Origin: a virus
Taxonomy: Duplodnaviria; Heunggongvirae; Uroviricota; Caudoviricetes
Virus record (IMG/VR): IMGVR_UViG_3300029705_000040
Location: 38,209 to 102,208 of that record
DNA length: 64,000 bases
Strand: one strand, 5' to 3'
The notes under the pieces are model-generated. The model did not search any database, was not told the DNA's origin, and saw only the letters and a program-made list of their open reading frames with translations. Numbering within the stretch: the stretch's first letter is position 1; every line of letters starts with the position of its first letter. The position numbers and the translations under genes were made by a program. Shown piece by piece: positions 1,533-53,344 of the stretch.

Positions 1533-2306
1533 ATGAAAGAGTATCCAAAAACCTTTTGTGAATTTTGCAGTAAATTTATTTCAAACAATAATATCGAAAA
1601 ACATAAATTAAGTCATTTAAATAATCCAAATTATTAGCGACGTATAGCCGGATTTACATATCAGTTGGATCATAACGATTTATTTTGTAAATTTTGCGGA
1701 AAAGAATGTAAAAATAAAAACTCTCTTATTTAGCATGAGATAAGATGTAAAAATAACCCTGATAGGTAGACAAGTGTTCGTAATAAGTTTAATAATATTG
1801 GTAGGAATGCTTGGAACAAAGGTTTAACAAAAGAAACTGATGAGAGGGTTGTTAAAAATAGCTTAAGTGTTAAAAAATTTTATTAGGAACATCCGGAAAA
1901 GAAACCTGGTGGATACAAAAAGAGTTCAGCACGAAGCTATAAATATGGAACATATAGAGGTTTTTATTGCGACTCAAGCTGGGAATTAGCTTTCATAATT
2001 TATTGTTTAGATAACAACATTGAGGTTGTAAGGAATGAAATCGGTTTCTAGTATATTAATTCTGATGGACAACAAAAAGAATTTTATCCAGATTTTATTG
2101 TAAATAGTACTTACTATGAAATTAAAGGTGGTTATGATACTTAGACAGAATATAAGATAAATCAATTTCCATATAACTTAGTTTTACTTAATTATGAAAG
2201 CATACAACCATACTTGCAATATGCAAAAAACACATATGGAAAAGATTTTATAAGATTATATGATAGAAATTATCCATCCTGGATGGATAAAGAATCTATT
2301 GAGTAA
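1533..2306 (+). CDS. Freestanding PD-(D/E)XK nuclease with two N-terminal C2H2-like zinc fingers (homing-endonuclease-like); contains 6 in-frame TAG codons
   Basis: ATG 1533 after a GGGAAAA RBS-like stretch. Codon-by-codon check gives a 257-codon frame to TAA 2304 whose only internal stops are TAG at 1635, 1731, 1767, 1884, 2049 and 2142. Motifs C-x2-C...H-x4-H (x2) and YPDF...EIK. Paralog of 14717-15643. Confidence 0.6.
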
Positions 2307-2873
2307 TACCAAAGTGATAAGTTGCTTTGTTAGTTTTGTTAATCACTTCTTAATCGGAAATCGCAAACTAAATATTGAATACAGTATAATGTGAATATAG
2401 GCGGAGCAAAAGGTAGATACGAAATTCAACGGTCCAAAGTCTTCGTTAGGGTGAAACACGGTAACTGCTTCTATGGCTGAAGGTGCCTACTGTATCTAAA
2501 ATTATTCGAGGGTAATGGCCTGCTAAAGTTGAAATGATATATACGATAGCCGAGCTGCTTCGTAGCAGACAGTAATTTTAGCGTTATAGTCCTACAGATA
2601 CGTTAAATCTGGGAACATACATAGTGGACTAATTATATTATTTTCGTAGAATTATTAATGATTATTATGTATAATTATTTAGTAAGCTGATATGGAGGTA
2701 TGTCTGTAGTTGTTCTACGCATTAGCAGCTGAAAAGTATTTATGCAGTACAGTTAACAACGAATCTTTATAACACTTGAGGAGCGGAAGAAAATTAGGTG
2801 TGGCAACAGCGACCAACTAACAGTGTCGAAGAGTTATGTAAAGTGTTATTTAGTAGTAAGTGTTAACAGGTAT

Positions 2874-2950
2874 GGCCCCATAGACAAACTGGTAGAGTCA
2901 CCAGCCCTTCAAGCTGGAATTTGCGGGTTCGAGCCCCGCTGGGGTCACCA
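2874..2950 (+). tRNA. tRNA-Glu (TTC) with C at position 33
   Basis: Acceptor GGCCCCA/TGGGGTC, anticodon stem CCAGC/GCTGG, loop CCTTCAA, T-arm GCGGG-TTCGAGC-CCCGC, CCA encoded. Confidence 0.55.
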
Positions 2951-3053
2951 TATGAAACAAATCTTTCCTATTTTCAATAACACATACTAAAGGGTTAGAA
3001 AAATAGGTGGAGGCGCCACAACCTTCGTTAACTATCAAATCTGTGGCATAATA

Positions 3054-3145
3054 TGAGAGATTAAGCAAACGGCAAAGCTCAGACTAGAAATCTGGAAGTT
3101 ATGCGCATAACTAATTAATGTAGGTTCGAATCCTACATCTCTCAA
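3054..3145 (+). tRNA. Type II tRNA with anticodon AGA (A34; Ser UCN reader?) and A73 discriminator
   Basis: Acceptor TGAGAGA/TCTCTCA, anticodon stem TCAGA/TCTGG, loop CTAGAAA, long variable hairpin GTTATGCGCATAAC, T-arm TGTAGG-TTCGAAT-CCTACA. Confidence 0.5.
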
Positions 3146-3148
3146 GTT

Positions 3149-3224
3149 GGGGTAGTAGCTCAATTGTTAGAGTATCTGCCTTCCAAGCAGAATGTTGCGG
3201 GTTAGAGTCCCGTCTGCCCCTCCA
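3149..3224 (+). tRNA. tRNA-Gly (TCC)
   Basis: Acceptor GGGGTAG/CTGCCCC, D stem GCTC/GAGT, anticodon TCTGC-CTTCCAA-GCAGA, CCA encoded. Confidence 0.8.
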
Positions 3225-3256
3225 TTATTTTTTTTTTATTTATATAGTAAAAATAG

Positions 3257-3285
3257 TTGATTTAATAAGCATTTTATTATATAAT
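3257..3285 (+). promoter_or_regulatory. sigma70-like promoter TTGATT-N17-TATAAT (family copy 1)
   Basis: Exact 17-nt spacer between TTGATT 3257-3262 and TATAAT 3280-3285. Confidence 0.6.
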
Positions 3286-3553
3286 ATAATTAGTTAATAA
3301 GTACTATATTAATTACTCGCGATAATTATTTAGTACGTAACCACAGCTAGTGTACCTTACTTTTCTTATTTGGGCAATAGATAGTTACACAATTTAGTGG
3401 TGATATAAATATAGTAACAGCTAGTATTTCTTACTTTATTCCTGGGATCAGGGCCGAACTTTTAATTCGATATATAGGGATACCTTACGTTACAAACAAT
3501 TTAACATCTCAGCTATTAGGACTTACTTTTAATGCATTCAGGAGCCGGGTGTC

Positions 3554-3613
3554 GTTGGTTCGAGTCCAACCTCCCCTACCAATATATAGGGGAGTAGCGC
3601 AGTTGGTAGCGCA
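3554..3613 (+). pseudogene. tRNA fragments in permuted order (3' half followed 6 nt later by a 5' half)
   Basis: 3554-3581 = T-arm GTTGG-TTCGAGT-CCAAC + CTCCCCT-A-CCA. 3588-3613 = AGGGGAG-TA-GCGC-AGTTGGTA-GCGC-A (acceptor 5' strand complementary to the upstream 3' strand). No anticodon arm joins them. Confidence 0.4.
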
Positions 3614-3673
3614 CCGTATAATAGTTCTAAAATTAAAACGAATTTTTATATCTAAATGGAGGTTTTAAGATAT

Positions 3674-5755
3674 ATGATGAAAGATTTGTACAGAGATTAT
3701 TTATTTAGTAAAAACATTTTGGTTTGCGTTGATGCGAATAATACTAAACATGATGATGTTTCAGCATTTTCATCTTTATTTGCTATCGCGAAAAAGTATA
3801 ATATTAAGATTAACGCTGGTAAAAGACTAGCTGATCAAGAAATTCTCAGATATCTTGAGAAGCAAATTCCTGGTAAAGTTACCGAAGCTTTTTATCGTGG
3901 ATTCCCTGAGTCTGTAAAAAGATTGAGTCCTACAGAGTTGCTTTTTGATCAACTTCTTCATTACTTCGATACGTATGTTTGCGGTAATTTTGATGGTGAT
4001 GCAGCTCACTCTGTTTTCGAGGAAACTTTCGAAACTGTAGCTTTCAATGAAAAAACTGAGATTAAGAATTTTGATATTCTTACAGAAGAAGATGCTGAAA
4101 AAGTTTTGCTTGAAATGGCTAACAATTTGCTTGCTTCTTCTAGACCTCTCAGTCAAGCTGCTTATGATTTGATTAAAGAGCTTTCTATCGATAAAAAGTT
4201 AATTATTACTGATGGTATTGCTAGTAGAGATACTGCTATTAAGTTATTGCTTGATTTAGAAGATGCTATTTTTGCTAAATATATCCAATTAAGTGATATT
4301 CTTAAAGTTGTTGAGGAATTGTTGCATAACAAATATCCTGGGATGACTCTTAAAAAGCTTAATCTTAAAAATCAAGATAGAAAGTTTGTTACTAATATTC
4401 TTAACATTAAATTTGCTAGTGGTAAACTTTCTAAATTCCAAAAAGCACTTTGCTTCGAAAGAAGAGCTGATTGGAAAGGTTTGCTTCACCAAATTCATTA
4501 TAAAGCAAAGAATGCTGCTGCATCTGAATTTGTTAATGATATCCGCAATGCAGAGAAAAATCTTTCTGTAATGGCTGATTTTGAAAACCTTATGATTAAA
4601 GGTGAAGTTGTTGGGGCTGCTGCGGTTCTCGCGAATAATAAGGGTAGCGGTGCTATTCTTAGAAATCTCAACTATATTCTTTCCAGATGTGAAAGTGCCG
4701 CAGATGTAGCAGAAGTTGTTAAATTTATCAAATCAGATAACCCTATTCTTCTTTTCCAACTTATTATGCAGTATAAGAATTATGTGGAAGATAAATCCGC
4801 ACGTACATTTACTTTCACTAAATACTATAAGCTTAAGACTCACAGAGAAACTTATGTTGAGCAATCTGCTAGAAAGTCTTTTGTTGGTAAAGAAATAAGA
4901 GATGCTGTTGTTCCTGCACTTTGGGATAATGTAAGATCTATCTACAAAAATAAGTTAGGGAAAGTCTATATTGATGAGTCAATGAAAAATATAGCTGTAC
5001 CTATGCAAGAAACAACTGCAGAAATGGGTTTGGGTGTACTTCCTAAAGGTACCAGAATGCATATCCCTGAAGGCAAAGTTGTTCGCGCTTTCACTTATTG
5101 GGAAAAGGTTAATGATATTGATTTATCTGCTATCGGTGTAACTGCTGATGGAAAGAGCATTGAATTCTCATGGAGAAGTATGTATAACAGACAGTCTGAT
5201 GCAGTTTGCTTCTCTGGAGATCAAACCTGTGGTTATAATGGTGGTAGCGAATATTATGACTTTAATTTGGAAGCTATCAAACAAAAGTATCCTACTATGA
5301 AATATTTAGTAGTATGCAATAATGTTTATAGCAGAGTACCTTTTAGCAAATGCAACTGTAAAGCGGGCTATATGCTCAGAGATAAAGTACGTTCTGGTGA
5401 GGTTTGGGAACCTAAAACTGTAGAATCATCCTTTAAGATTACTGGTGATAGCACTTATAGTTATATGTTCGCTATTGATGTTGAAAAGAATGATTTTGTA
5501 TGGCTTAATATGTGTAAAGATAGTATGGCTAGAGTAGCTGGTGACTCAGACTTTACATTCCTTGCAAAATATATTGGTATGACCGAAATTCTCAACGTAT
5601 ATACTTTGTTTGAAATGATGGCTACCGAAATTGTTGATAATAAAGAAGAAGCTGATATTTTAGTAACTGATGATATTCTTGAACTTGGGGAAAACCAAGA
5701 ACAGGTAAAATCTACAGATACTGAAAAGCTTCTCAAATATTTGAATAATAAGTAA
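3674..5755 (+). CDS. Hypothetical protein, 693 aa
   Basis: Long ORF; GGAGG at 3658-3662 precedes ATG 3674; TAA stop; no motif recognised. Confidence 0.7.
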   Translation: MMKDLYRDYLFSKNILVCVDANNTKHDDVSAFSSLFAIAKKYNIKINAGKRLADQEILRYLEKQIPGKVTEAFYRGFPESVKRLSPTELLFDQLLHYFDTYVCGNFDGDAAHSVFEETFETVAFNEKTEIKNFDILTEEDAEKVLLEMANNLLASSRPLSQAAYDLIKELSIDKKLIITDGIASRDTAIKLLLDLEDAIFAKYIQLSDILKVVEELLHNKYPGMTLKKLNLKNQDRKFVTNILNIKFASGKLSKFQKALCFERRADWKGLLHQIHYKAKNAAASEFVNDIRNAEKNLSVMADFENLMIKGEVVGAAAVLANNKGSGAILRNLNYILSRCESAADVAEVVKFIKSDNPILLFQLIMQYKNYVEDKSARTFTFTKYYKLKTHRETYVEQSARKSFVGKEIRDAVVPALWDNVRSIYKNKLGKVYIDESMKNIAVPMQETTAEMGLGVLPKGTRMHIPEGKVVRAFTYWEKVNDIDLSAIGVTADGKSIEFSWRSMYNRQSDAVCFSGDQTCGYNGGSEYYDFNLEAIKQKYPTMKYLVVCNNVYSRVPFSKCNCKAGYMLRDKVRSGEVWEPKTVESSFKITGDSTYSYMFAIDVEKNDFVWLNMCKDSMARVAGDSDFTFLAKYIGMTEILNVYTLFEMMATEIVDNKEEADILVTDDILELGENQEQVKSTDTEKLLKYLNNK

Positions 5756-5859
5756 GATTATAGAAGCGAAAAGTTTTTTCATTTTCTCCTTTGTAAAAGC
5801 TGTTATTCAATGCGAGTAACAGCTTTTAATTTTACTTATAAGATAGTTAGCTAAATTAG

Positions 5860-5888
5860 TTGATTTATTCTGTATAGTATTATATAAT
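5860..5888 (+). promoter_or_regulatory. sigma70-like promoter TTGATT-N17-TATAAT (copy 2)
   Basis: TTGATT 5860-5865, TATAAT 5883-5888. Confidence 0.55.
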
Positions 5889-5918
5889 AGATATGTAGAT
5901 AAGATAATAAATCTATAT

Positions 5919-5995
5919 AGGGGATTGGTATAGTAGGTGATTATTCGGGTCTCCAAAACCTTGAGAAAAAAGTTCGAGTCTTTTATCCCCTGCCA
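5919..5995 (+). tRNA. tRNA-Trp (CCA)
   Basis: Acceptor AGGGGAT/ATCCCCT-G-CCA, anticodon loop CTCCAAA, T-loop TTCGAGT; resembles E. coli tRNA-Trp. Confidence 0.7.
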
Positions 5996-6132
5996 CAGCT
6001 TGATATGATAACAAATAGCGACACAAGCCCAAGTGTTTGTATAATTATACTTAAGAAATAAATAGATAATTATACAGTGCCTATCAAATAGTCAGATGTG
6101 TGGTTAGCCGACCTTAAGGTGTTTCATTTTAT

Positions 6133-6207
6133 GGCTTGGTAGTTCAGTGGTAGAACGATGGACTGAAAATCCATATGTCGATGGTTCAATCCCATCTCAA
6201 GCCACCA
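6133..6207 (+). tRNA. tRNA-Phe (GAA)
   Basis: Acceptor GGCTTGG/TCAAGCC, D GTTC/GAAC, anticodon ATGGA-CTGAAAA-TCCAT, T GATGG-TTCAATC-CCATC, CCA. Confidence 0.85.
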
Positions 6208-6354
6208 AGCCGAGTGTTGACGTTTTATAATCTTTTTCAAACGGGGCTAACGGTAGCAAAAAGAGGACTTTTTCAAATCCGTAGATAAGTAGGTTTTAAG
6301 TTGAAAAACCAAATACCATACAGTAGTAACTGGTCAAAAAGATTCTACTAATAT

Positions 6355-6463
6355 AATTGAGTGGCTGAATGGCAAGGCACACCTCCGAAAAGGTTTGGTG
6401 GTTTCCGGTTCGACTCCGGTTTAGGTTGTGGTAACTCATACAAGTTCGAGTCTTGTCTCAATT
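6355..6463 (+). other. Aberrant ~109-nt tRNA-like element (tRNA-Ser-like D-loop, two T-arm hairpins)
   Basis: Acceptor AATTGAG...CTCAATT are perfect complements. D-loop GAGTGGCTGAA is identical to E. coli tRNA-Ser. Internal hairpin CCGG-TTCGACT-CCGG plus terminal T-arm ACAAG-TTCGAGT-CTTGT. Anticodon arm ACCT-CCGAAA-AGGT has a 6-nt loop. Confidence 0.35.
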
Positions 6464-6473
6464 ATTTCTACAT

Positions 6474-6562
6474 GCGTCGGTAGCCCGTAAATAGTAGCGG
6501 ACCAGACTGTAAATCTGGTGGCCTGACGGCCTCTGGGGGTGCAAGTCCCTCACGGCGCACCA
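6474..6562 (+). tRNA. tRNA-Tyr (GTA), type II
   Basis: Acceptor GCGTCGG/ACGGCGC-A-CCA, anticodon CCAGA-CTGTAAA-TCTGG, variable arm TGGCCTGACGGCCTCT. Confidence 0.8.
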
Positions 6563-6566
6563 ACTT

Positions 6567-6643
6567 CTTTCTGTACCCGAATTGGCATAGGGGCATGACT
6601 AAGGATCATGTTTTTGGAGGTTCAAGTCCTCTCAGAAAGACCA
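6567..6643 (+). tRNA. tRNA with anticodon AAG (A34; Leu CUN reader?) with short variable arm, G37, A73
   Basis: Acceptor CTTTCTG/CAGAAAG, anticodon CATGA-CTAAGGA-TCATG, T GGAGG-TTCAAGT-CCTCT, CCA. Confidence 0.55.
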
Positions 6644-6784
6644 TTGTTAATAAATCTCAAGTATTCTACTGGGTAGTGTGGTGTAGTTAACAGTACGTTC
6701 GAGTCGTATGTAAAACTTGAGGAAAGTAGTTGAACTACATTGATGACTACTTAACAAAATTATATAATGAGGTAATAACCTGTT

Positions 6785-7531
6785 ATGAACGAACAACTTA
6801 ATTTAACACCGCAAGAATATTTTGATCAAGTAAAAGAAAAGAAACAACATGTTACCGATGAAATGCTTAATCAAGTATATGATAACTGTTTGACGCTTCT
6901 TAATAAATATAAGATTACAGGTCAAAAAACTGGTATTAAAAAATTACTTTTTCATTTAGAATGTATTGAAAAAGAGCGTGAAATCATTAAGCTAGGTGTA
7001 GATACTTTTGTATATAAAGATGATATCGAAGAATATATCGATAATGTAGCAGATGATGCAGTTAAGATTATCGAGCTCGAAAATTATGAAAGAGATATCC
7101 CTAATGAGATTGTTGAGCTTATTGATAAAGTAAAAGATAAATTCGATAGACTTTATGTTGTTTTCACTGATTATACTGGAAAAGAAGAGCGTAAAATAGC
7201 TAAAGAAAAGCATGCTAAAGATCCTATTCTTTTTGGAACATTCTTAAATGATAGTAAGCGAGTTGTTGTAGATAGATTCTATTATTTAGGCGACTGGATC
7301 GATGAGTACTGTGATCTAACTCTTGATAAGATGGTTAATGAGTATAAGCAAGAAACTGGAAAAGAGATTCGCAGAACAATTAAAACACCTGCTGATATAG
7401 AGGAATTAAAAGATCAATTGAAAGGTCTTACACCATCAACAGTAACTAATGGCTTATATTTGATCAGTAATGAGCAACCTAAAAAGTCTTTTTTCAGCAA
7501 AATAAAATCTATTTTTAGTAAAAACAAATGA
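6785..7531 (+). CDS. Hypothetical protein, 248 aa
   Basis: ORF with upstream GAGG; TGA stop overlaps next start (ATGA). Confidence 0.7.
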   Translation: MNEQLNLTPQEYFDQVKEKKQHVTDEMLNQVYDNCLTLLNKYKITGQKTGIKKLLFHLECIEKEREIIKLGVDTFVYKDDIEEYIDNVADDAVKIIELENYERDIPNEIVELIDKVKDKFDRLYVVFTDYTGKEERKIAKEKHAKDPILFGTFLNDSKRVVVDRFYYLGDWIDEYCDLTLDKMVNEYKQETGKEIRRTIKTPADIEELKDQLKGLTPSTVTNGLYLISNEQPKKSFFSKIKSIFSKNK

Positions 7532-7959
7532 AAAGAAACGTTGATTTAACAGTTAATGGAGATTTTTCAGATAGATCTACTGCATCAAATGGAAGTTTTA
7601 TATCTGTTTGGAATTTATTTCTAACTGGTGGTGATAGAATTCCTTGGAAATATTCTAAAGTTAAAGAAGTGCATTCTCAAGAAGATGCATTACACTCTGA
7701 CTTAGTAATAACTGGGAATAAATCAGATAGAGTTAGATATAGAGCTATGCAAATAGCAGAATCAACTAAACATTGCGATAGATGTGGCAAAAAATTAAAT
7801 ATAATGAATTCAGACTTAAACATGAGCTTATGCTCTAAATGCTATAAATCACTTGAAAAAGATTATGGTAAGGTAAAAATACCTTTTATAGACATAAATT
7901 TAGGTCATAAAATCGGAAATAATTACTGGACTCAATATATGAATCATAGAGCAAGATAA
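7528..7959 (+). CDS. Hypothetical protein with C-terminal zinc ribbon (CDRCG...CSKC)
   Basis: ORF; start is translationally coupled to the previous gene. Confidence 0.65.
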   Translation: MKRNVDLTVNGDFSDRSTASNGSFISVWNLFLTGGDRIPWKYSKVKEVHSQEDALHSDLVITGNKSDRVRYRAMQIAESTKHCDRCGKKLNIMNSDLNMSLCSKCYKSLEKDYGKVKIPFIDINLGHKIGNNYWTQYMNHRAR

Positions 7960-7984
7960 GGTAGTTATAATCTACCTTTAATAC

Positions 7985-8066
7985 GCCCTTATAGACGAAC
8001 TGGCCTAGTCAGCGGACTTAGAATCCGTGCGTAAGCGTCTCCGTTCAAATCGGAGTAGGGGCACCA
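7985..8066 (+). tRNA. tRNA-Leu (TAG), type II
   Basis: Acceptor GCCCTTA/TAGGGGC-A-CCA, 3-bp D stem GAC/GTC, anticodon GCGGA-CTTAGAA-TCCGT, long variable arm. Confidence 0.8.
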
Positions 8067-8151
8067 GTAAATCTTAGATGTATCGATACAGACTAAGCAG
8101 AGCGAGTGTCCCTTGCGTCCTCGGTAAAACTCTGAAAATCGCATGGACCAT

Positions 8152-8244
8152 GGTGAGATGGGTGAGTTGGCTGAAACCAGTCCCCTGCTAAGGGACCGAC
8201 CCTGGAAACGGGGTCCGCGAGTTCGAATCTCGCTCTCACCGCCA
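8152..8244 (+). tRNA. tRNA-Ser (GCT), type II
   Basis: Acceptor GGTGAGA/TCTCACC-G-CCA, anticodon GTCCC-CTGCTAA-GGGAC, variable arm ~20 nt. Confidence 0.8.
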
Positions 8245-8286
8245 CTTATAGGTTGATAACTTATCCTATAAAAGAGTTATTGAGGT

Positions 8287-8332
8287 TAGTTGTAAGCCAA
8301 AAGCAGCAATAGGTTCAAGTCCTGTACAACAA
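8287..8332 (+). other. Truncated tRNA-like minihelix (acceptor + T-arm only)
   Basis: TAGTTGT...ATAGG-TTCAAGT-CCTGT-ACAACAA; the 15-nt linker replaces the D and anticodon arms. Confidence 0.3.
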
Positions 8333-8397
8333 CAAAGGTATGTAGAGTGTACCTTAAGCACTCCGCTATGTGCGCTAACAGCGAAAGCGTACTAATT

Positions 8398-8474
8398 GTC
8401 TCTTTGGTGTAATGGATTAGCATAACTCCCTACGAAGGAGCAGATAAGAGTTCAAATCTTTTAGGGGACGCCAG
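8398..8474 (+). tRNA. tRNA-Arg (ACG)
   Basis: Acceptor GTCTCTT/AGGGGAC-G-CCA, anticodon loop CTACGAA (same as E. coli Arg-ICG), T AAGAG-TTCAAAT-CTTTT. Confidence 0.75.
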
Positions 8475-8480
8475 TATATT

Positions 8481-8768
8481 ATGAAAGAAATTACAAAAAC
8501 GATAAAACTAAATAGAGATTTAAAACAGTCTTTCTATAATAAAAGAACGGCTAAAGTTAGGTTATTTGTTTGTCCTAAATATAAGGGTAAGCAAGATGTA
8601 CGAATATTTATAGAAAGTATTGATGATTATGCTTTGTTTCTTAATAGAGAATGTTATTCAGATGAAGAAGTAGAGTTAGCTTATAATGCGTTAAAAGTAA
8701 TTTTTGATAGTATACCAAAAGTTCTAACTAGACAATGGTGTAAAGAAAATAATTTCGAACTATATTAA
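8481..8768 (+). CDS. Hypothetical protein, 95 aa
   Basis: ORF immediately 3' of the tRNA; TAA stop. Confidence 0.55.
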   Translation: MKEITKTIKLNRDLKQSFYNKRTAKVRLFVCPKYKGKQDVRIFIESIDDYALFLNRECYSDEEVELAYNALKVIFDSIPKVLTRQWCKENNFELY

Positions 8769-8775
8769 ATAATAT

Positions 8776-8849
8776 GTCCGAATAGCCAAGCGGTAAGGCA
8801 GGGGACTGCAACTCCCCGATCATCTGTTCGAATCAGATTTCGGACTCCA
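8776..8849 (+). tRNA. tRNA-Cys (GCA)
   Basis: Acceptor GTCCGAA/TTCGGAC-T-CCA, anticodon GGGGA-CTGCAAC-TCCCC. Confidence 0.85.
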
Positions 8850-8911
8850 AATAAAATATAAGGGAGGATTTCATAATGCAGCTATAAAAGATTAATTTTA
8901 GGAGAACCATT

Positions 8912-9274
8912 ATGAAACAACGTCACAAATATTTTAGAAACCAGCGTTACAGAAATAAAGCTGAGCAAAAAGCTCTTATGACAGGTTGGGGTTATGGAAG
9001 ATATTATTATTTCATAACTAAAGAACCAGATCCTGCTAATCTTAGAGAGTGGCCTTTTACGCCTGACATTAAAGCTAGAGGTAAGGATTACTATTGTTAT
9101 TATTGCAATAAACCTACTGTTCCATATACTATTATGCAGGGCCAACGTAGAAGGACTTTTCCCAAATATTATAGAAATTATTGTAATAGACGTCTTAGAA
9201 AAACTTTTAAAGATGAAATTTATAATAATTGCTTATATAAGAAGCTTACTGAATATTGGTGGACTATTGATTAA
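8912..9274 (+). CDS. Hypothetical basic protein, 120 aa
   Basis: ORF with AGGAG RBS. Confidence 0.6.
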   Translation: MKQRHKYFRNQRYRNKAEQKALMTGWGYGRYYYFITKEPDPANLREWPFTPDIKARGKDYYCYYCNKPTVPYTIMQGQRRRTFPKYYRNYCNRRLRKTFKDEIYNNCLYKKLTEYWWTID

Positions 9275-9280
9275 AAATAG

Positions 9281-9309
9281 TTGATTTTTACTTAGATTTA
9301 TATTATAAT
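9281..9309 (+). promoter_or_regulatory. sigma70-like promoter TTGATT-N17-TATAAT (copy 3)
   Basis: TTGATT 9281-9286, TATAAT 9304-9309. Confidence 0.55.
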
Positions 9310-9356
9310 ATATGTATAAAATATAGATATGATTGATATAATCATCTCTATAATAT

Positions 9357-9431
9357 GCAGGATTAGCGTAGCGGATACGCAACCGCCTTCTAAGCGGTTA
9401 CAGATAGGTTCGACTCCTATATCCTGTACCA
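9357..9431 (+). tRNA. tRNA-Arg (TCT)
   Basis: Acceptor GCAGGAT/ATCCTGT-A-CCA, D GCGT/ACGC, anticodon ACCGC-CTTCTAA-GCGGT. Confidence 0.85.
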
Positions 9432-9481
9432 CTTTTTATTCAAAACTTTCTAAATAGAAGGAAAATCTTATAGGAAAATAG

Positions 9482-9510
9482 TTGATTTATTATATAAGAA
9501 AATATATAAT
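9482..9510 (+). promoter_or_regulatory. sigma70-like promoter TTGATT-N17-TATAAT (copy 4)
   Basis: TTGATT 9482-9487, TATAAT 9505-9510. Confidence 0.55.
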
Positions 9511-9542
9511 AATAATATAAAATATCTGATGAGGTTAAAGTT

Positions 9543-9812
9543 ATGAATAAAGAACATAACTGGATGAAATTTACTCTCAAAACTATTTATAATGAAGAAA
9601 TTGTTGTTATGTATGATAGCAACAGATATCCTTCTGATAAAGAAGATGAATTAAGAAAAGCGATAGATTTGGCCGATGTCTATAGAAATTCTTATTATAA
9701 TGATAGTGGAGTTATTGTTATGGATAAGAAAACAGCTGATTTTTGGTTTGGTGTCGTAGAAGAAGTTAAATGTAAAGCATTAGAGAAATATAGAAATGAA
9801 AGTATTTCCTAA
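9543..9812 (+). CDS. Hypothetical protein, 89 aa
   Basis: ORF with GAGG RBS. Confidence 0.55.
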   Translation: MNKEHNWMKFTLKTIYNEEIVVMYDSNRYPSDKEDELRKAIDLADVYRNSYYNDSGVIVMDKKTADFWFGVVEEVKCKALEKYRNESIS

Positions 9813-10056
9813 CTATGATCTATTATATGATGGTTCTATATGGAACTTAAATGATATTATCTATATGAAAATTCTTTCTTGTAGTAAACCAGGATATAAG
9901 TTTGAATTAGAATTTAGAATAAAAGAATTAGATACTTTGCTTTACTTTAATCATGTAGATAATGAATGGGATTACAAAATAGTTCAATATGAATTCATTG
10001 ATTTCTTAGCTAAATTTGTTAATCATTTATGTAAAGATTTAATCAATTTGAAATAA
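9796..10056 (+). CDS. Hypothetical protein, 86 aa
   Basis: ORF overlapping the previous stop. Confidence 0.5.
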   Translation: MKVFPNYDLLYDGSIWNLNDIIYMKILSCSKPGYKFELEFRIKELDTLLYFNHVDNEWDYKIVQYEFIDFLAKFVNHLCKDLINLK

Positions 10057-10161
10057 GTAAGACTATTCACTTAAGTAGAGAGGAAAATCTCACTTAGAAA
10101 TATAGATTTTGATATTATCAGTAAAGGTAATACCAGATAGGTGAAAAGCCTATCAAAACAT

Positions 10162-10237
10162 GCGCCTGTAGCTCAGGTGGTAGAGCACGTGACTTTTAAT
10201 CACGGTGTCCCGAGTTCGAGCCTCGGCAGGCGCACCA
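10162..10237 (+). tRNA. tRNA-Lys (TTT)
   Basis: Acceptor GCGCCTG/CAGGCGC-A-CCA, D GCTC/GAGC, anticodon CGTGA-CTTTTAA-TCACG. Confidence 0.9.
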
Positions 10238-10255
10238 AAATCACAGAGGTGTGTT

Positions 10256-10441
10256 ATGAGTAAAATTATGGAAGAACTTAATAGAATTTCTTTATTAGAA
10301 TCTATGTGTAAAAATCCTGTTACTGTAGATGCTATTAATAACTCTTATAAAGAAGATGCTGATGATAGTTTCGGTATTTTCGATACACCTGAAGAAGCTT
10401 TTGCAGCTATGGAAGAGAGTTGGAAAAATGAAAAAAATTGA
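10256..10441 (+). CDS. Small acidic protein; candidate antitoxin of the downstream RelE/YafQ-like toxin
   Basis: 61-aa ORF starting after the tRNA (track ORF trimmed); overlaps the toxin start by 14 nt. Confidence 0.4.
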   Translation: MSKIMEELNRISLLESMCKNPVTVDAINNSYKEDADDSFGIFDTPEEAFAAMEESWKNEKN

Positions 10442-10727
10442 GCTTAAAAAGTAGTTTACCAAAGATTTTGAAAAGTTATCAAAAACTGGTAAAATCGATA
10501 AGAAAAGTTTTTCTAATATAATTAATGATATAGCTGCTGGAAAACCTCTTGATCAAAAATATAGAGATCACGCTTTAGCTAAGCACTCTCCAAAAGAACT
10601 ATAGGGCTGTAGAGACTTCCATTATAAAAGCAATATATGTGTTGTTTATAAAGTTTTAGATGATTTAATTCAGCTTATAAGGATTGGAAGTCATCAAGAT
10701 CTAGGATTAACTGAGGATTTAAGATGA
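10428..10727 (+). CDS. RelE/YafQ-family type II toxin, 99 codons including 2 in-frame TAG
   Basis: Verified frame ATG 10428 to TGA 10725. Only internal stops are TAG at 10452 and 10602. Motifs ...KDFEKLSK..., DHALAKH, CRDFH, VVYKV..LIRIGSHQDL match YafQ/RelE. The first TAG aligns with Q of E. coli YafQ SGQYSKDV. Confidence 0.6.
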
Positions 10728-11383
10728 CCGATTTAGAAATATTTATACAAAACAATCAAGAATTAATCGATCTAAATACTAAAGAAAGCTGGATAGAAAT
10801 TTATGATTTGTTTGAAAGCTCTTATTATGATGATTATCTAGCTGGAGAATTAAGCAAATTATTAATTGATATTAATGCAGATCCATGTCATATAATCGGT
10901 TTTGTTCCTAGAAGATTTTTAATGGGTCAAAGCGATTTAACTAAATATGAAATACCTAAAAATGCATCTTATATAGGAATGAGTGCTTTCGAAGATACAG
11001 CTTTAGAAGAAGTATATATACCAGAAAGTGTTAGAGAGCTAGATTTCTTATGTTTTTCAGGAACTAAATTAAAAAAAGTATTTATACCGGATACTGTGCA
11101 TAGAATAGCAAATGGGGTATTTCATTCTTGCTTAAATCTAGAAGAAGTATTGATTGGTAAAGTATCGGAATTGGGCGAAGATGTTTTTGCTAATTGTGAG
11201 AATTTAACAAAATTAATTATTTGCGATAGTGTATCTCAACTTGATTCTAGCATTGTTAAAGGTTGTAAATCACTAAAAGAAATCGATTTTTTAGGAACGA
11301 TCGAAACATTTGAAAAGATTCGAGTAGGTTATACAGAATCATCTATAAAAATAAAATGCATAGATGGTGAAATTTCTTGGTAA
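10724..11383 (+). CDS. BspA-type leucine-rich repeat (LRR_5-like) protein
   Basis: Repeats of the form IP.SV..I...F..C..L..V.I across 219 aa; ATGA overlap with the toxin stop. Confidence 0.65.
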   Translation: MTDLEIFIQNNQELIDLNTKESWIEIYDLFESSYYDDYLAGELSKLLIDINADPCHIIGFVPRRFLMGQSDLTKYEIPKNASYIGMSAFEDTALEEVYIPESVRELDFLCFSGTKLKKVFIPDTVHRIANGVFHSCLNLEEVLIGKVSELGEDVFANCENLTKLIICDSVSQLDSSIVKGCKSLKEIDFLGTIETFEKIRVGYTESSIKIKCIDGEISW

Positions 11384-11480
11384 AATAATTAAAAATTAAG
11401 AAATTAGTCCTGTATAAATAATTGTTAAAAGAAAAACATTTAATTTAAGAAATTTTTACGCTAAATTAAATGTTATAAAT

Positions 11481-11565
11481 GCTGGTGTTCCCGTAGTGGC
11501 CAACCGGAACGGATTTGTAATCCGTCGCGAAAGCTTCGTGAGTTCGAATCTCACCACCAGCTCCA
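11481..11565 (+). tRNA. tRNA with anticodon TGT (Thr ACA?) but an 85-nt type II-like architecture
   Basis: Acceptor GCTGGTG/CACCAGC-T-CCA, anticodon ACGGA-TTTGTAA-TCCGT, extra hairpin CGAA-AGC-TTCG in the variable region. Confidence 0.5.
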
Positions 11566-11645
11566 GACGTCGAAATCAAAAGTAGACAAACAGATACGTT
11601 ATCTCAGAAATAATCTGTATAAACTATAAGAGATAACATAAAAAT

Positions 11646-11719
11646 GCCTCGATGGCTCAGCGGTAGAGCAGTCGCCTAGTAAGCGACAGGTCGTCGGTTC
11701 AAATCCGACTCGAGGCTCC
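11646..11719 (+). tRNA. tRNA with anticodon AGT (A34; Thr ACN reader?)
   Basis: Acceptor GCCTCGA/TCGAGGC-T-CCA, D GCTC/GAGC, anticodon GTCGC-CTAGTAA-GCGAC. Confidence 0.6.
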
Positions 11720-11727
11720 ACAATATA

Positions 11728-11804
11728 TTGGGGATTCGCCAAGCGGTAAGGCACGGGATTTTGATTCCCGCATTTCGGGTGTTCGAATCACTCATCCCCA
11801 GCCA
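11728..11804 (+). tRNA. tRNA-Gln (TTG)
   Basis: Acceptor TGGGGAT/ATCCCCA-G-CCA (U1-A72 as in bacterial Gln), anticodon CGGGA-TTTTGAT-TCCCG. Confidence 0.8.
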
Positions 11805-12101
11805 CCAGTGTATATATTTTTCATGAAATAAGTCTTATATATACATATATGGATAGAGACTTTGTCGGAGATATTACAACGGGTATACCCATAAGGGTGA
11901 GAGCATAAGAGTTAAACCGGCTTATTGCGAACCAGTGAACTTACGGACACAGAACGGTAACTGTAGGGAACGTAGGTAGACAACGAGTTCACTCCCTAAA
12001 GAACTAATGACCGATGCTTAGTATAATTAGTAGTACTTTCCCTTTCCTGGGAGAAACATCAGTGCAATTCTGGTAGTATCGACTTAATTAAGGAAAAACA
12101 A

Positions 12102-12290
12102 ATGATTTCACTTATTCTATTATTTCTTGAACTGATATATTTATATGTATATTATATCGTAAAAAGTAAAAGTATAGAGAAGTCACTAATGTATATAGAT
12201 AATTATATTATAAATGGTAGAAAACTTCTCACTAATACTGGTTTAGAAATTATTAGAAGTAGAGTAAATTCTAAAAGAAGTAAATTTTAA
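12102..12290 (+). CDS. Small hydrophobic protein, 62 aa
   Basis: ORF with AGGAAAAA RBS. Confidence 0.4.
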   Translation: MISLILLFLELIYLYVYYIVKSKSIEKSLMYIDNYIINGRKLLTNTGLEIIRSRVNSKRSKF

Positions 12291-12300
12291 TGAGGTGTTT

Positions 12301-12669
12301 ATGTATTCGCATCTAAATGAGCAATTATTGCTAGAGATGGCTGAAATTGGTCGTATTGATGGATATAAGATACTAATTTATGGCAGTGAAGGACCTACAC
12401 AACATTTTCATGTAGAAAATAAAGAAAAGAAAATATCAAGTTGTGTAAAAATTTGTGAAGATGGTTATTTTAGTCATGGAACACATAAAGATACTTTAGA
12501 TAATAAATTAGTTAAAAAATTAAAAGAATTTCTTAATGCTCCTCATAAATTTTTTGGAAAACATGGTTATACTAATTGGCAAATAATTTGTATTTATTGG
12601 AATGATAATAACCCAGATTATTTAATTGATTTAGATACAGTTAAGATGCCTTTGTATAATAATTTATAA
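12301..12669 (+). CDS. Hypothetical protein, 122 aa
   Basis: ORF; GAGG at 12292-12295 precedes ATG 12301. Confidence 0.55.
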   Translation: MYSHLNEQLLLEMAEIGRIDGYKILIYGSEGPTQHFHVENKEKKISSCVKICEDGYFSHGTHKDTLDNKLVKKLKEFLNAPHKFFGKHGYTNWQIICIYWNDNNPDYLIDLDTVKMPLYNNL

Positions 12670-12747
12670 TTTTGAAATATTGCTCTGCTGGCTGTTTTTA
12701 GTATCAATTGATTCAGGACTAAAACTGCAACTGGAGCCTTATATTAT

Positions 12748-12822
12748 GGTGGGTTCGTATATCGGTTAGTACACAGCACTGTCACTGCTGAAGGACGGGT
12801 TCAACTCCCGTACCTACCGCCA
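12748..12822 (+). tRNA. tRNA-Asp (GTC)
   Basis: Acceptor GGTGGGT/ACCTACC-G-CCA, anticodon CAGCA-CTGTCAC-TGCTG. Confidence 0.8.
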
Positions 12823-13187
12823 TAAAACAACAGTAAGTCCAATACTTAGTAGGCTACGTAGTACTTTGATTGGCTAGTTGTTAAGTATTCGTAGTTCGTC
12901 GAAATAAAACAAACGAATTAACCGTAAGTAACGGCGAGCGAAAACGGTTAGCCAGTAGTAAGGACAATCTTGCGAAGGCACAACTGATACATATGACAGC
13001 TTCATATGTCGTAGCATAGAAAAAGTGCTCATGATGTTTTACGTAAAGTTACATCCACTGAATTCGCTCATCTAATGAGCAGCTAGTAACACTTACTTTT
13101 GATAACAGAGAACAAATAGATATTGAAACCCAGTGTTACAAATTACTTTATAAACAGCTATTGAAACTTACTTTTATCAAATTATTC

Positions 13188-13272
13188 TGCAGGGTAGCTC
13201 AGTAATCGTTAAAGAGCGCTAATCTTTGCTAAGATTAGAGGTCGTTGGTATGAAATCCATCCCCCGCCGCCA
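13188..13272 (+). other. Aberrant tRNA-Ala(TGC)-derived element with an 8-nt anticodon loop
   Basis: D-arm TAGCTCAG...GAGCG and variable AGGTC match E. coli tRNA-Ala. Anticodon stem CTAATC/GATTAG has loop TTTGCTAA (8 nt). T-loop TATGAAAT (8 nt). Acceptor TGCAGGG/CCCCGCC has 2 mismatches. G-CCA encoded. Confidence 0.4.
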
Positions 13273-13404
13273 TTTAACAGTTTCAAAATTCTGTATTAAG
13301 AATAGAGCTATTATTACTTACTTTTTGAAATGGTTATTATAGGTTCGATTCCTATACTGAGCCTTAGGCTTAGTTGTTAGTAATATAACTTATCTATTCT
13401 ATAT

Positions 13405-13481
13405 AGCTGGGTAGAGCAGTCAGGTAGCTCGCTAGGCTCATAACCTAGAGGTCCAGGGTTCGAATCCCTGCCAAGCAACCA
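13405..13481 (+). tRNA. tRNA-Met or Ile2 (CAT), with A1:A72 mismatch (initiator-like feature)
   Basis: D GAGC/GCTC, anticodon CTAGG-CTCATAA-CCTAG, T CAGGG-TTCGAAT-CCCTG, CCA. Confidence 0.65.
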
Positions 13482-13531
13482 CTCTGCGTTTTTGGCTAGT
13501 CTTCGCGAAGAAAAATAAACTAGCATAATAT

Positions 13532-50621: not shown

Positions 50622-50622
50622 A

Positions 50623-51141
50623 ATGATTACCATTAGAAAAAATACTTTTGAAACAAATAGCAGCAGCACTCATAGCATTGTGATTCCTAAGAATGTTGAT
50701 AATAAAAAAGATTTTACTAAATCTATACACTTTGGATTAGGTGAATTTGGTTGGAGTAGAGATGTTGCTGATCCAGCTGATTACTTATATACGGCTATTT
50801 GTGATGCTTATTTAGATAGTTATTATACTGCTGAACATCAAGAAAAAGGAAAAGTATACTTACAAAAAATAAAAGATATTCTCGAGAAAAATGGTATCAC
50901 ATATGAATTCGAAGAGGTAAAAAATGGGCCTTATAATTATTTTTATGTAGATCACTGCAGTGAGTTAGATACTTTTATAGAAAGGGTCTGTAATGATGAG
51001 GACCTTCTCTTGAGATATCTTAAGTATGGTACAGTTTATACTGGTAACGATAATGATGATTATGATGAAAGCTATCACTACTTCGATGCTTACCATGAAC
51101 TAGATCCAGAAAATTATGATTACTTCTATAAATCTAATTAA
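50623..51141 (+). CDS. Paralog family member C (MITIRKNTFETNSSSTHS)
   Basis: Conserved N-terminal motif; acidic Tyr-rich C-terminus. Confidence 0.6.
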   Translation: MITIRKNTFETNSSSTHSIVIPKNVDNKKDFTKSIHFGLGEFGWSRDVADPADYLYTAICDAYLDSYYTAEHQEKGKVYLQKIKDILEKNGITYEFEEVKNGPYNYFYVDHCSELDTFIERVCNDEDLLLRYLKYGTVYTGNDNDDYDESYHYFDAYHELDPENYDYFYKSN

Positions 51142-51186
51142 ATATTTCAAAAACCTCTGTATATAATTATATATGGAGGTTATTTT

Positions 51187-51558
51187 ATGTTTACTATTAG
51201 AAATAGTACATTTGAAACAAACTCAAGTTCAACGCACAGTATAGTAATTGGTACAGAAAAGCAGTTCGAAGATTGGCGAGCAGGTACGCTTTTATATAAA
51301 CATTACGCATGGTCATCTGATAAACTCGAAAAGGGTTTTTATACATTAGAAGAATTGAAGCAATATCTAATAGATGATGGCGAGTATACAAAAGTAGATA
51401 TCGAAGCTATGGATCAAGATGAGCTTTTAGATATTCTGAGAGAAGATGATATTGTTGACTATGATAACTGGTATGAGAATCTTGAGCATGATACTCATAC
51501 ATACACAACAGCTAGCGGTGAAAAGATTGTCATCGAATGTGCTTATGGTTACGATTGA
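51187..51558 (+). CDS. Paralog family member D (MFTIRNSTFETNSSSTHS)
   Basis: Conserved N-terminal motif. Confidence 0.55.
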   Translation: MFTIRNSTFETNSSSTHSIVIGTEKQFEDWRAGTLLYKHYAWSSDKLEKGFYTLEELKQYLIDDGEYTKVDIEAMDQDELLDILREDDIVDYDNWYENLEHDTHTYTTASGEKIVIECAYGYD

Positions 51559-51573
51559 TATGGAGGAATAACT

Positions 51574-51936
51574 ATGATAAGTATCAGAAGAAATACTTTT
51601 GAAACTAACTCTTCTTCTACTCATTCTTTATCTGTTGTTAACAAAGAAGATTGGGAAAAATTTAAAGCTGGCGAGCTTTATTTCGCATCAGATAATTATG
51701 ATTTAATCAGTAAGGAAGATGTCATTGAACTAGATGCTTTCGAAGATAGCTATCCAGAATTTAAAGATCAGCCAGAAGATGTTAAAAAATATTTAATTGA
51801 AAAATTTATAAAAGATAATTGCGACGGAGAATACGCACCTATATACTCTTACAGATATCTTGATCCACCTTTCAAAATTGTTTATGATAAAAATGGAAAT
51901 GAGATGGTAGCTTTTTCATTCTATTTTTATGGCTAA
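51574..51936 (+). CDS. Paralog family member E (MISIRRNTFETNSSSTHS)
   Basis: Conserved N-terminal motif. Confidence 0.55.
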   Translation: MISIRRNTFETNSSSTHSLSVVNKEDWEKFKAGELYFASDNYDLISKEDVIELDAFEDSYPEFKDQPEDVKKYLIEKFIKDNCDGEYAPIYSYRYLDPPFKIVYDKNGNEMVAFSFYFYG

Positions 51937-52046
51937 ATTAAAAGAACATAGACGCTTTAATATAGTATAATCAGCTCTAAATGCGCGCAAGAGTTTATTA
52001 TTCTGTATAATAAAGCAAATACAAAAATTTAAGGAGAATAAAAATC

Positions 52047-53344
52047 ATGGCAGGTAATAATTCTATACAACTTCTGCGTGGTAGTTCAACTGCTAGAAAA
52101 GCTAGCACTGAAAAATTGCTCTCCGGTCAACCTTTCTACGAAACAGATACAAATTTGTTTTATGTAGGGGGGGGGGCAACTTAAGCTCTGCTACACCTAT
52201 TAAGGTTAGCACTCTCACAATCTAGAGAAATGGTACAACTGTTGGTACCTTTAATGGTTAGACAGCTCAAACTATTAATATCTAGGATACTGATACTAAC
52301 ACAGACTTAAAAACAGCATCAGGAAATACTTCAAGCAAAATCTACTTAATTGGTGCTACTAGCCAATCTAGTTCTGGTCAAACAACATACTCTCATGATA
52401 CAGCATATGTTGGAACAGATGGTTGTTTATACAGTAATAGTAGTAAGGTTGCTGTAAGAACAGAAGTACCATATATTTTAAAAGATAACTCTTATTTAGT
52501 TATTTATAAAAACGATTCTTCTACATTAGAGTCAAATTGTATATATACAAATTATCCATCATACACAATAACTTTTAATGCGAATGGTGGCAGCTGTTCA
52601 ACAACATCGAGTAAGACATTTAGAGGAAAATTATCTAGCTTACCTACACCCACTATGAGTGGTGGTACATTCTTAGGTTGGGGCACGTCATCTTCTGCAA
52701 CTAGCTATGTAAGCTCTAGCAAAGTTTATAGCTCTAACACAACACTTTATGCTATTTGGAAAATTGATAGTACATCAAGTGGATCAGGTAACGATTATGA
52801 AGGTACTTATCAGTTAATAGATGATGAAAGTCCACAAAACGTGTTAGCTACTGATGATTATGTTATCATAGCCGGCACCACATCATCTGACAGTATGTTA
52901 TATTTTATGGGTAATGATTTTTCTGGTAATTATCCATATAACTATTCTTTAGATCCTTCTGACCAACTAACTTTAGATGGCTCTAGCAGTATAGCTATAT
53001 TTAAAGTTACTTATAACGATGGTTAGATAGCTTTACAACTTGCAAATGGTGAGTATTCAGGACAATATTTAGCAAATACTTCGAATAAATATTTAAAACT
53101 TCAATCAGATGAATGTTTTTGGGATATCTCAGAACATGGGTCTCCAGCGTACGGCGGTTTGCAAGTTGGTTCTAATAGAACCAAGCTCATATGTCAGGAC
53201 ACAGGCAACCTTATAGTAGTTCCTACTAGTATGCAAGCTAATAGCAACAACAGCTATAGTACAACATTCTCGTGTTATACTAATCCAAGTAGTAGTTATC
53301 TTGATACGACTCAAATATTCAGGCTGATCACAGATTCTAACTAA
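52047..53344 (+). CDS. Tail-fibre-like receptor-binding protein with Listeria-Bacteroides repeat domain. Reading frame interrupted twice near the 5' end and carrying 4 in-frame TAG codons
   Basis: N-terminus MAGNNSIQLLRGSSTARKASTEKLLSGQPFYETDTNLFYVGGG (typical tail-fibre N-terminal motif) in frame 0 up to the G9 tract 52167-52175. Body from 52184 to TAA 53342 lies in frame +2 (…KVSTLTI*RNGTTVGTFNG*TAQTINI*DTDTNT…ITFNANGGSCSTTSSKTFRGKLSSLPTPTMSGGTFLGWGTSSSATSYVSSSKVYSSNTTLYAIW…) with no ATG before 52655. TAG at 52223, 52259, 52283 and 53024. Removing one G from the G9 tract and one T from 52198-52201 would restore a single frame. Confidence 0.55.

Follow-up and report, generated by a model that had tools for sequence, protein, structure and literature searches.

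Evidence that UAG is read as glutamine in an unclassified jumbo phage carrying two tandem tRNA(CUA) genes

We analysed a 64,000-nucleotide stretch of a Caudoviricetes virus (IMG/VR record IMGVR_UViG_3300029705_000040, positions 38,209 to 102,208), hereafter called the window and numbered from its first base, in which the amber codon TAG stands in frame within a subset of genes. Judged by sequence comparison, TAG is translated as glutamine in this phage, is absent as a stop codon and is clustered in particular genes, and the phage carries conserved suppressor tRNA genes with a CUA anticodon; we regard these four points as established. It appears highly probable that they belong to one arrangement, in which UAG means glutamine to the phage, two tandem phage-encoded tRNA(CUA) decode it, and TAG is confined to genes that can wait to be translated. 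Recoding of TAG to glutamine (code 15) is a well-established phenomenon of gut phages, of which this phage is a further case. The sequence read amounts to ~85.5 kb, the genome being at least 259 kb long, and comprises the window and its flanks on the contigs L001, L018, L021 and L007.

In-frame TAG as the only interruption of thirteen genes

Taking TAG as sense recovered ten intact + strand genes in the window as stop-to-stop open reading frames (ORFs); together they contain 28 in-frame TAG and are free of internal TAA and TGA, which bears out the same count in a first-pass annotation made from the letters alone. Three further genes in the flanks hold 18 in-frame TAG, bringing the total to 46 TAG in 13 genes, again without internal TAA or TGA.

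Two of these genes encode paralogous nucleases with six TAG each. Paralog A (1533-2306, + strand) is a homing-endonuclease-like protein with a zinc-finger N-terminus and a nuclease-like C-terminus; its stop-to-stop ORF contains TAG at 1635, 1731, 1767, 1884, 2049 and 2142 and aligns with 120 full-length homologs of paralog B. Paralog B (14717-15643, + strand; TAG at 14834, 14924, 14930, 15212, 15365 and 15497) has 366 homologs, mostly full-length (~300-330 amino acids), and at three of the six TAG columns of their alignment Gln outnumbers every other residue. A TAG thought to occupy the same column in both paralogs does not do so: in a 122-sequence alignment the two codons lie 8 columns (7 residues) apart, the TAG of B facing Val in A and that of A facing Ser in B.

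The GIY-YIG/NUMOD3 homing endonuclease gene (26573-27424, + strand) carries four TAG (26624, 26834, 27071 and 27203) and matches Pfam GIY-YIG and NUMOD3, the GIY-YIG match running across a TAG. Directly upstream of it, an RHH protein gene (26402-26536, + strand) contains a TAG-TAG doublet at 26471 and 26474, and its match to Pfam RHH_1 (26.8 bits, cut-off 20.5; residues 6-41) includes both codons. A fourth endonuclease, of the HNH type (350 amino acids, 8 TAG), is encoded in the flank. The gene for a YafQ/RelE-family toxin (10428-10727, + strand) has TAG at 10452 and 10602. Its Pfam YafQ_toxin match (7.8e-19) covers residues 3-92 of 99, across both TAG codons, and YafQ-family homologs in the PDB align with it end to end, with Q, S or K at the first TAG column. 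The start of the toxin gene is overlapped by 14 nt by a TAG-free gene for a 61-amino-acid acidic protein (10256-10441, + strand), for which neither Pfam nor the PDB gave a match; its position makes it a candidate antitoxin.

The tail-fibre-like gene (52047-53344, + strand; Pfam Flg_new repeat, 1e-13) has TAG at 52223, 52259, 52283 and 53024. Its N-terminus (MAGNNSIQLLRG...) is paralogous to a tail-fibre-like protein of 786 amino acids encoded upstream of the window on L021, with nine TAG; a homolog search with the latter returned only its own code-15 translation (Logan), so that it gives no residue information for the nine codons. The frame of the window gene is broken 40 codons after its start by a run of ten G (52167-52176, + strand) and is restored by one extra G or two fewer. 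This run, the only G/C homopolymer of at least 8 nt in the window, is identical in all contigs retrieved and looks like either a phase-variation tract or a systematic assembly error.

Several small genes on the + strand contain a single TAG. In the gene for a 126-amino-acid protein (20469-20849), which has no family match in Pfam, TAG is codon 3 (20475); GAGG stands 7 nt before its ATG, and there is no other start for ~40 codons. A zinc-ribbon protein gene (28516-28872; weak zinc-ribbon Pfam matches) has a good ribosome-binding site and TAG at codon 44 (28645), and a gene recognised from its ORF structure (56038-56382; 114 amino acids, no Pfam family match) has TAG at codon 24 (56107). The DUF3310 gene (29431-29859) is preceded by GGAGG before its ATG at 29431 and has TAG at codon 22 (29494); the domain match (7.6e-19) covers residues 72-130, and the gene may instead start at Met56, as the TAG sits N-terminal of the domain. 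Another small zinc-ribbon gene (29939-30268) had been credited with an in-gene TAG at 29987, which probably lies outside it, directly before the likely start at 29990, since that ATG has its own GGAG 7-8 nt upstream. Likewise, TAGs near 5' ends at 9757, 9781, 17732, 41579, 43357 and 55392 are probably upstream of the real starts. The two details that failed, the shared nuclease column and TAG 29987, leave the conclusion on recoding unaffected.

Loss of TAG as a terminator

In a crude model of 116 window genes, 79 end in TAA, 37 in TGA and none in TAG, as the first-pass annotation had observed for ordinary ORFs; ~15 TAG stops would be expected. Among + strand stop-to-stop ORFs of at least 100 amino acids, 46 end in TAA, 22 in TGA and one in TAG, the last being a fragment of a larger gene, and the only ATG-to-stop ORFs of at least 80 amino acids that end in TAG are pieces of nuclease B and of the tail-fibre gene. 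Base composition gives TAG and TGA equal expectation, under which 0 TAG against 37 TGA has P ~7e-12. For an empirical baseline we used a metagenome scan, which had recovered relatives at 29-48% identity, not the phage itself: across 63 loci of distantly related phages, TAG ends 12.6% of long ORFs (19% at GC <=34.5%). This baseline predicts 15-22 TAG stops in the window genes (P for none <=1.7e-7). The flanks likewise yielded no TAG-terminated gene, and TAG is therefore not used as a stop in any gene found in the ~85 kb read. If UAG no longer terminated reliably, the phage would have to end every gene in TAA or TGA.

The residue at TAG codons

A homolog search with the GIY-YIG protein retrieved a 283-amino-acid protein that shares 92% identity with it and reads Q opposite each of the four TAGs. 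Inspection of its DNA (ENA; contig L017, from another metagenome) revealed that the source gene caller had translated TAG as Q. The two genes are 94% identical at the nucleotide level and share TAG at codons 88, 167 and 211, while at codon 18 the window has TAG where L017 has CAG, and at codon 265 the window has CAG where L017 has TAG. On this alignment TAG and CAG interchange like synonyms. The pair differs by an estimated 28.5 synonymous and 19.5 non-synonymous changes (Nei-Gojobori), and the ratio of non-synonymous to synonymous rates (dN/dS) is 0.15 overall and 0.14-0.33 in the segments after successive TAGs of this one gene pair. Because the ratio is low also downstream of the TAGs, the gene is under purifying selection along its whole length. 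The closest homolog of nuclease B (68% identical; contig L087, Logan SRR5371385), from another low-GC phage, carries seven TAGs, two of them at TAG codons of nuclease B and one aligned with CAA. Relatives truncated at these points, or with mixed stop and frameshift lesions, were thus looked for and not met with, the L017 ortholog keeping three of the TAGs and the L087 nuclease carrying seven.

The residues of homologs were then read off at the 14 TAG columns that could be aligned, by a Codetta-style sum of log-odds. Q scored +11.6 bits and every other residue was negative (K -5.3, S -7.9). With homologs from JGI and NCBI only, Q was again the sole positive residue (+5.6 bits; S -5.5). With the full set of homologs, the mean Q score at TAG columns (0.83) matched the one at genuine Gln columns (0.90). 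Glutamine is accordingly the only residue favoured at the TAG columns. Peptides with Gln at TAG positions have been obtained for crAss-like phages only (PMC9523058).

Two tandem suppressor tRNA genes

The window holds 28 tRNA genes by ARAGORN, to which Rfam adds one tRNA-like element and one YrlA-like match, and none has a CUA anticodon, as the first-pass annotation had found. No tRNA(CUA) was found in 9.8 kb upstream (L001 and L018) or 7.6 kb downstream (L007) of the window either. The suppressor had been expected elsewhere in the phage genome, and two tandem tRNA(CUA) genes are indeed present on L021, at 2964-3054 (91 nt) and 3059-3136 (78 nt), that is at about -10,977..-10,887 and -10,882..-10,805 relative to window base 1, with Rfam tRNA scores of 56.2 and 33.1 bits (gathering score 29). 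L021, which extends 4.1 kb further upstream than the other flank contigs, was joined to the window through L018, which contains the window start; the L021/L018 overlap of 2647 nt has a single mismatch, indicating that L021 belongs to the same phage. A 12-bp terminator-like hairpin with a T run (L021:2929-2958) ends 5 nt before the first tRNA(CUA).

The short (78-nt) tRNA(CUA) has the acceptor stem TGGGGAT and G73 of the phage tRNA-Gln(UUG) (11729-11804, + strand, ARAGORN; TGGGGAT/ATCCCCA, G73), which is also its best pairwise match (68%) among the 33 other tRNAs of the region. Its other features are a U1.C72 mismatch and a T loop of non-canonical sequence (GTCGGCA). The long (91-nt) tRNA(CUA) has a 6-bp variable arm, U1-A72 and G73; over its anticodon, variable and T arms it is 88% identical to one of the genes annotated as tRNA-Sup-CTA in phage phAss-1. 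The conserved core of the long type was located in 23 IMG/VR stretches, in 22 of which ARAGORN calls a tRNA(CUA), and the short type adjoins it in 6 of these 22 contigs; an IMG/VR contig of 233 kb has the same tandem of a long member and a short member with a non-canonical T loop. The 14 distinct sequences of the long family show compensatory changes in 13 of 23 base pairs, an invariant G73, a 1:72 pair that is weak or mismatched throughout, and a D stem of 4 bp. From these comparisons we conclude that the tRNA(CUA) genes are real, conserved genes, and their acceptor ends look tRNA-Gln-like.

Pyrrolysine decoding was considered on the basis of tRNA-Pyl architecture (small D loop lacking GG, variable loop of 3 nt) and pylSBCD. 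It was rejected, as both tRNA(CUA) have GG-containing D loops and a variable region that is 5 nt or long, and as the TAG columns fit Gln; no pyl gene was noticed, although not every ORF was searched. The ARAGORN label "tRNA-Pyl" merely reflects the CUA anticodon and was likewise discarded.

Uneven use of TAG

The 116-gene model contains 313 CAA, 104 CAG and 35 in-frame TAG, of which 28 are in the ten robust genes. TAG thus makes up 7.7% of Gln-type codons window-wide, compared with half in both nucleases (6 of 12 in nuclease A) and 4 of 9 such codons in the GIY-YIG gene. At least 4 TAG occur in three genes, against 0.17 genes expected at a uniform rate (P = 4.5e-4), and 97 of the 116 genes (84%) have none. 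In the 85.5 kb, the recoded genes are those for four homing endonucleases of three families, which are the heaviest TAG users, the YafQ toxin, both tail-fibre-like proteins (4 and 9 TAG), the RHH protein and some small proteins; genes for capsid, terminase or lysis were not found in this sequence. The recoded codon is enriched in homing endonucleases of another phage too, because the endonuclease genes on L087 are rich in TAG and their neighbours are not: beside the nuclease homolog, a T5orf172/MUG113 endonuclease-like gene (L087:2191-2508) was observed with four in-frame TAG, and the genes around it hold at most one. The GC and third-position GC (GC3) of the TAG-bearing genes of the window equal those of their neighbours, so that a recent import of these genes from another phage finds no support.

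The published gut phages with code 15 or code 4 recode 26-71% of their genes, for the most part those for structure and lysis; in the code-15 phages the recoded stop is used in only part of the genome, mainly in late genes; and in Agate phages a homing endonuclease in the early region is preferentially recoded, which the authors take to delay its production (bioRxiv 10.1101/2021.08.26.457843). The same work detected suppressor tRNAs in only ~40% of the genomes that recode TAG, and found release factor 2 and aminoacyl-tRNA synthetase genes to be optional in cases of code change. The clustering of TAG in selfish or toxic genes and in tail fibres fits the published model of late-gene gating.

We propose that the two tandem tRNA(CUA), ~11 kb upstream of the window, decode UAG. 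The short one would be a derivative of the phage's own tRNA-Gln (same acceptor stem and G73, with U1.C72) and the long one a member of a widespread phage family with a long variable arm; both would presumably be charged through the host glutamine pathway, the charging enzyme being one that we infer. Sense TAG would be tolerated only where translation can wait for the suppressor, and ~100 other genes would stay readable in the standard code of the host. If the suppressors were expressed later than the TAG-free genes, TAG would act as a timing lock on harmful and late genes; the one hint at such timing is the terminator-like hairpin before the first tRNA(CUA).

Competing explanations

Several points weigh against this proposal. 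The view is limited to the ~85 kb read, out of at least 259 kb in the genome. Homologs from Logan and ENA are partly circular for Q, as gene callers translate TAG as Q, and the Gln signal is weaker with standard-code sources only; two TAG columns are Ser-dominated in homologs. The tail-fibre gene, being frame-broken as well, could be inactive. No + strand sigma-70-like promoter was found between the hairpin and the tRNA(CUA) pair. Finally, the long tRNA(CUA) combines a class-II-like variable arm with G73, so that its amino acid may be other than Gln; in bacteria, a long variable arm together with G73 is a hallmark of serine tRNAs, recognised by seryl-tRNA synthetase (SerRS).

A stronger version of the timing idea, which we consider doubtful, holds that TAG is a lock on selfish and dangerous genes, opened by a conserved two-tRNA cassette whose members are not redundant, and that UAG has either two meanings or one that changes with time. 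Under the lock would be the four homing endonucleases and the YafQ toxin; the putative antitoxin being TAG-free, it would be made from the start and the toxin only once suppression begins. The long tRNA(CUA) would then differ from the one derived from tRNA-Gln in the amino acid it inserts, in its charging or in its regulation.

Somewhat less probable still is that TAG is sense but not glutamine alone, the long tRNA(CUA) being charged by SerRS or another enzyme and decoding being ambiguous or varying in time. Two structurally different suppressors do adjoin, and the pair is kept in phAss-1 and in the 233-kb IMG/VR contig; the long variable arm with G73 resembles bacterial tRNA-Ser under established SerRS identity rules, and 2 of the 14 TAG columns are dominated by Ser/Thr or Ser/Ala in homologs. 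Over all TAG columns, however, Ser is negative with either set of homologs and Gln alone is positive, and the three exchanges of TAG with Gln-family codons in close homologs all involve CAG or CAA. Moreover, the weak or mismatched 1:72 pair and 4-bp D stem of the long family are tRNA-Gln-like and not tRNA-Ser-like, and the phAss-1 authors report a tRNAscan-SE call of Gln for one, unspecified, of three tRNA-Sup-CTA (PMC10607447).

It is very unlikely that the host itself reads TAG as sense, so that the phage would mirror the host code and no switch would occur in infection. The absence of TAG as a stop in every gene seen would agree with this, and phages of code-25 hosts are known to mirror the code of their hosts; in such phages, however, ~90% of genes use the recoded codon, whereas here 84% of genes lack TAG, several of the 19 others have it upstream of a likely start, and the phage brings two tRNA(CUA) genes of its own. 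No bacterial lineage is known to read TAG as Gln.

That the TAG-bearing genes are decaying pseudogenes in which TAG is a true stop is barely credible: homing endonuclease and toxin genes do decay often, the tail-fibre gene is also frame-broken at its G10 run and standard-code gene calls by JGI fragment the TAG-bearing genes, but all 46 interrupting stops in the 13 genes are TAG although TAA is the commonest stop triplet in DNA of 32% GC, TAGs are kept at the same codons in diverged orthologs, dN/dS is low across and downstream of them, no normal gene ends in TAG, and suppressor tRNAs are present, so that decay is excluded by interruptions that are TAG alone, by their conserved positions and by the low dN/dS. 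The preference of the first-pass annotation for stop-codon recoding of the crAss and Lak type over pseudogene decay is hence upheld by orthologs, Gln columns and suppressors alike, and we retain UAG decoding as glutamine by the phage's own tRNA(CUA) as the preferred reading.

The phage and its other genes and RNA elements

The window has a G+C content of 31.8%, and all its recognisable genes lie on the + strand. Many metagenome contigs from JGI, ENA and Logan carry its sequence at >99.9% identity. The longest, Ga0187908_10000014 (JGI), measures 258,782 bp and terminates within the window, which identifies the phage as a jumbo phage. A near-identity DNA search with 20 kb of the window against 50,697 phage records (INPHARED) returned no match, and two large window proteins searched by tblastn against the phage collection gave none, or only matches of 23-30% to unrelated phages. 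The best huge-phage match in tblastn was 23% identity over half of one protein, and an IMG/VR scan with a single protein, of 714 amino acids, recovered no relative. On these searches the phage is an unclassified jumbo phage for which no sequence relationship to any named clade was found.

The tRNA array (463-17165, + strand; 28 tRNAs by ARAGORN, confirmed by Rfam) continues upstream of the window with five more tRNAs on L001/L018 and the tRNA(CUA) pair on L021, for a total of 35 in the ~85 kb read. Wobble-A tRNAs are unusually many, namely Ser(AGA), Leu(AAG) twice, Thr(AGU) and Arg(ACG) twice (window 3054-3145, 6567-6643, 11646-11720, 8398-8473 and 17090-17165; L001:2941-3010), and the two tRNA-Leu(AAG), of 70 and 77 nt, are without the long variable arm expected of tRNA-Leu. 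Within the array, a 110-nt tRNA-like element (6355-6464, + strand) that ARAGORN missed scores 35.1 bits with the Rfam tRNA model (gathering score 29). Acceptor stem, D arm and T arm are all normal, and no anticodon loop is recognisable; the ~59 nt between include a second T-arm-like hairpin (CCGG-TTCGACT-CCGG). A disguised suppressor was rejected for this element, which contains no CTA triplet. A match to YrlA, a bacterial Y RNA-like RNA (3525-3637, + strand; 39.6 bits, short of the 69 set as gathering score), immediately precedes an ORF of 699 amino acids (3656-5755, + strand), with which it may form an RNA-protein module. The encoded protein has no match in Pfam or the PDB, and its phage homologs are only hypothetical proteins of Rhodococcus, Mycobacterium, Lactobacillus and Rhodobacter phages at 23-30% identity.

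Beyond the array, the window encodes auxiliary proteins including FolD, an RNA ligase, a kinase-like P-loop protein, a metallophosphatase, an SPFH protein and NAPRTase. The NAPRTase and an NAD synthase-like protein, both of NAD+ salvage, are encoded at 60260-61558 and 63409-64000, and an adenylosuccinate synthetase further downstream (L007:13150-13950). Gut jumbo phages reportedly carry NAD+ synthesis genes, which the NAD+ genes of the window match.

Two loci of other phages also deserve mention. Ga0310690_10000706 (66.9 kb) belongs to a different phage with a similar layout, including SPFH and metallophosphatase genes, a nuclease B homolog and 26 tRNAs. Of its 14 long ORFs, three end in TAG and none in TGA. 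It is without TAG recoding, given these three TAG stops, and might avoid or recode TGA instead. In Ga0310691_10000327 (94 kb), from a distant relative, long-ORF coverage rises from 0.85 to 0.99 with TAG as sense and to 0.91 with TGA as sense; no tRNAs were found at this locus, which may represent another TAG-recoded phage.

Discussion

An unclassified jumbo phage (largest contig 259 kb, 35 tRNAs in 85 kb) here joins the phages that recode TAG to Gln. A practical consequence is that annotation under the standard code, as in the JGI gene calls, shreds at least 13 genes in 85 kb, and translation table 15 is needed. A region otherwise compatible with the standard code yet dotted with recoded endonucleases, toxin and tail fibres supports the idea of recoding as a gate on harmful or late functions. 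A pair of structurally distinct tRNA(CUA) common to unrelated code-15 phages offers a handle for studying the code switch and may serve as a natural amber-suppressor pair.

The suppressor of E. coli called supE is an amber suppressor tRNA-Gln(CUA) that inserts Gln at UAG, and a weak 1:72 pair and G73 are identity elements for glutaminyl-tRNA synthetase. The phage resembles this system in having a tRNA-Gln body with a CUA anticodon. It differs in that supE suppresses partially in a cell where UAG continues to serve as a stop, whereas here UAG has been dropped as a stop and there are two suppressor genes.

Rumen and gut jumbo phages with code 15 and tRNA(CUA) have already been catalogued (PMC13037316). 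With the code-15 gut phages (crAss-like, Lak, Garnet, Amethyst and Topaz among others; bioRxiv 10.1101/2021.08.26.457843, PMC9523058) the present phage shares low GC, gut-type metagenomes as its source, TAG aligned with Gln, the loss of TAG as a stop, recoding of a part of the genes, recoded tail-fibre (structural) genes and a phage-encoded tRNA(CUA). The searches linked it by sequence to none of the named clades, and its heaviest recoding, in the 85 kb seen, falls on homing endonucleases and a toxin and not on lysis genes. Lak megaphages also differ in genome size (~540 kb, compared with a largest contig of 259 kb here), and the phage collection yielded neither near-identical DNA nor a strong protein match. 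The TGA-recoded Agate phages provide a parallel, as a homing endonuclease (in a group I intron) in an otherwise standard-code region prefers the recoded stop there too; the codon, however, is TGA read as Trp in Agate phages and TAG read as Gln here, and the present genes are four free-standing endonucleases (GIY-YIG, HNH and a zinc-finger nuclease pair) together with a YafQ toxin.

For the suppressors themselves, the comparison is with phAss-1, of the proposed Phassvirus (OQ749652; PMC10607447), which NCBI places in a "Caudoviricetes code 15 clade". Its genome, at 136 kb, is smaller than the present one (at least 259 kb), its two tRNA types stand in the opposite order, tblastn found no match in it for two large window proteins, and the non-canonical T loop (GTCGGCA) of the short suppressor is a feature of the present phage. 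Both phages nonetheless read TAG as Gln, carry more than 30 tRNAs and have the same short and long types of tRNA(CUA) side by side, the short one in each case with a U1.C72 mismatch and the acceptor stem TGGGGA.

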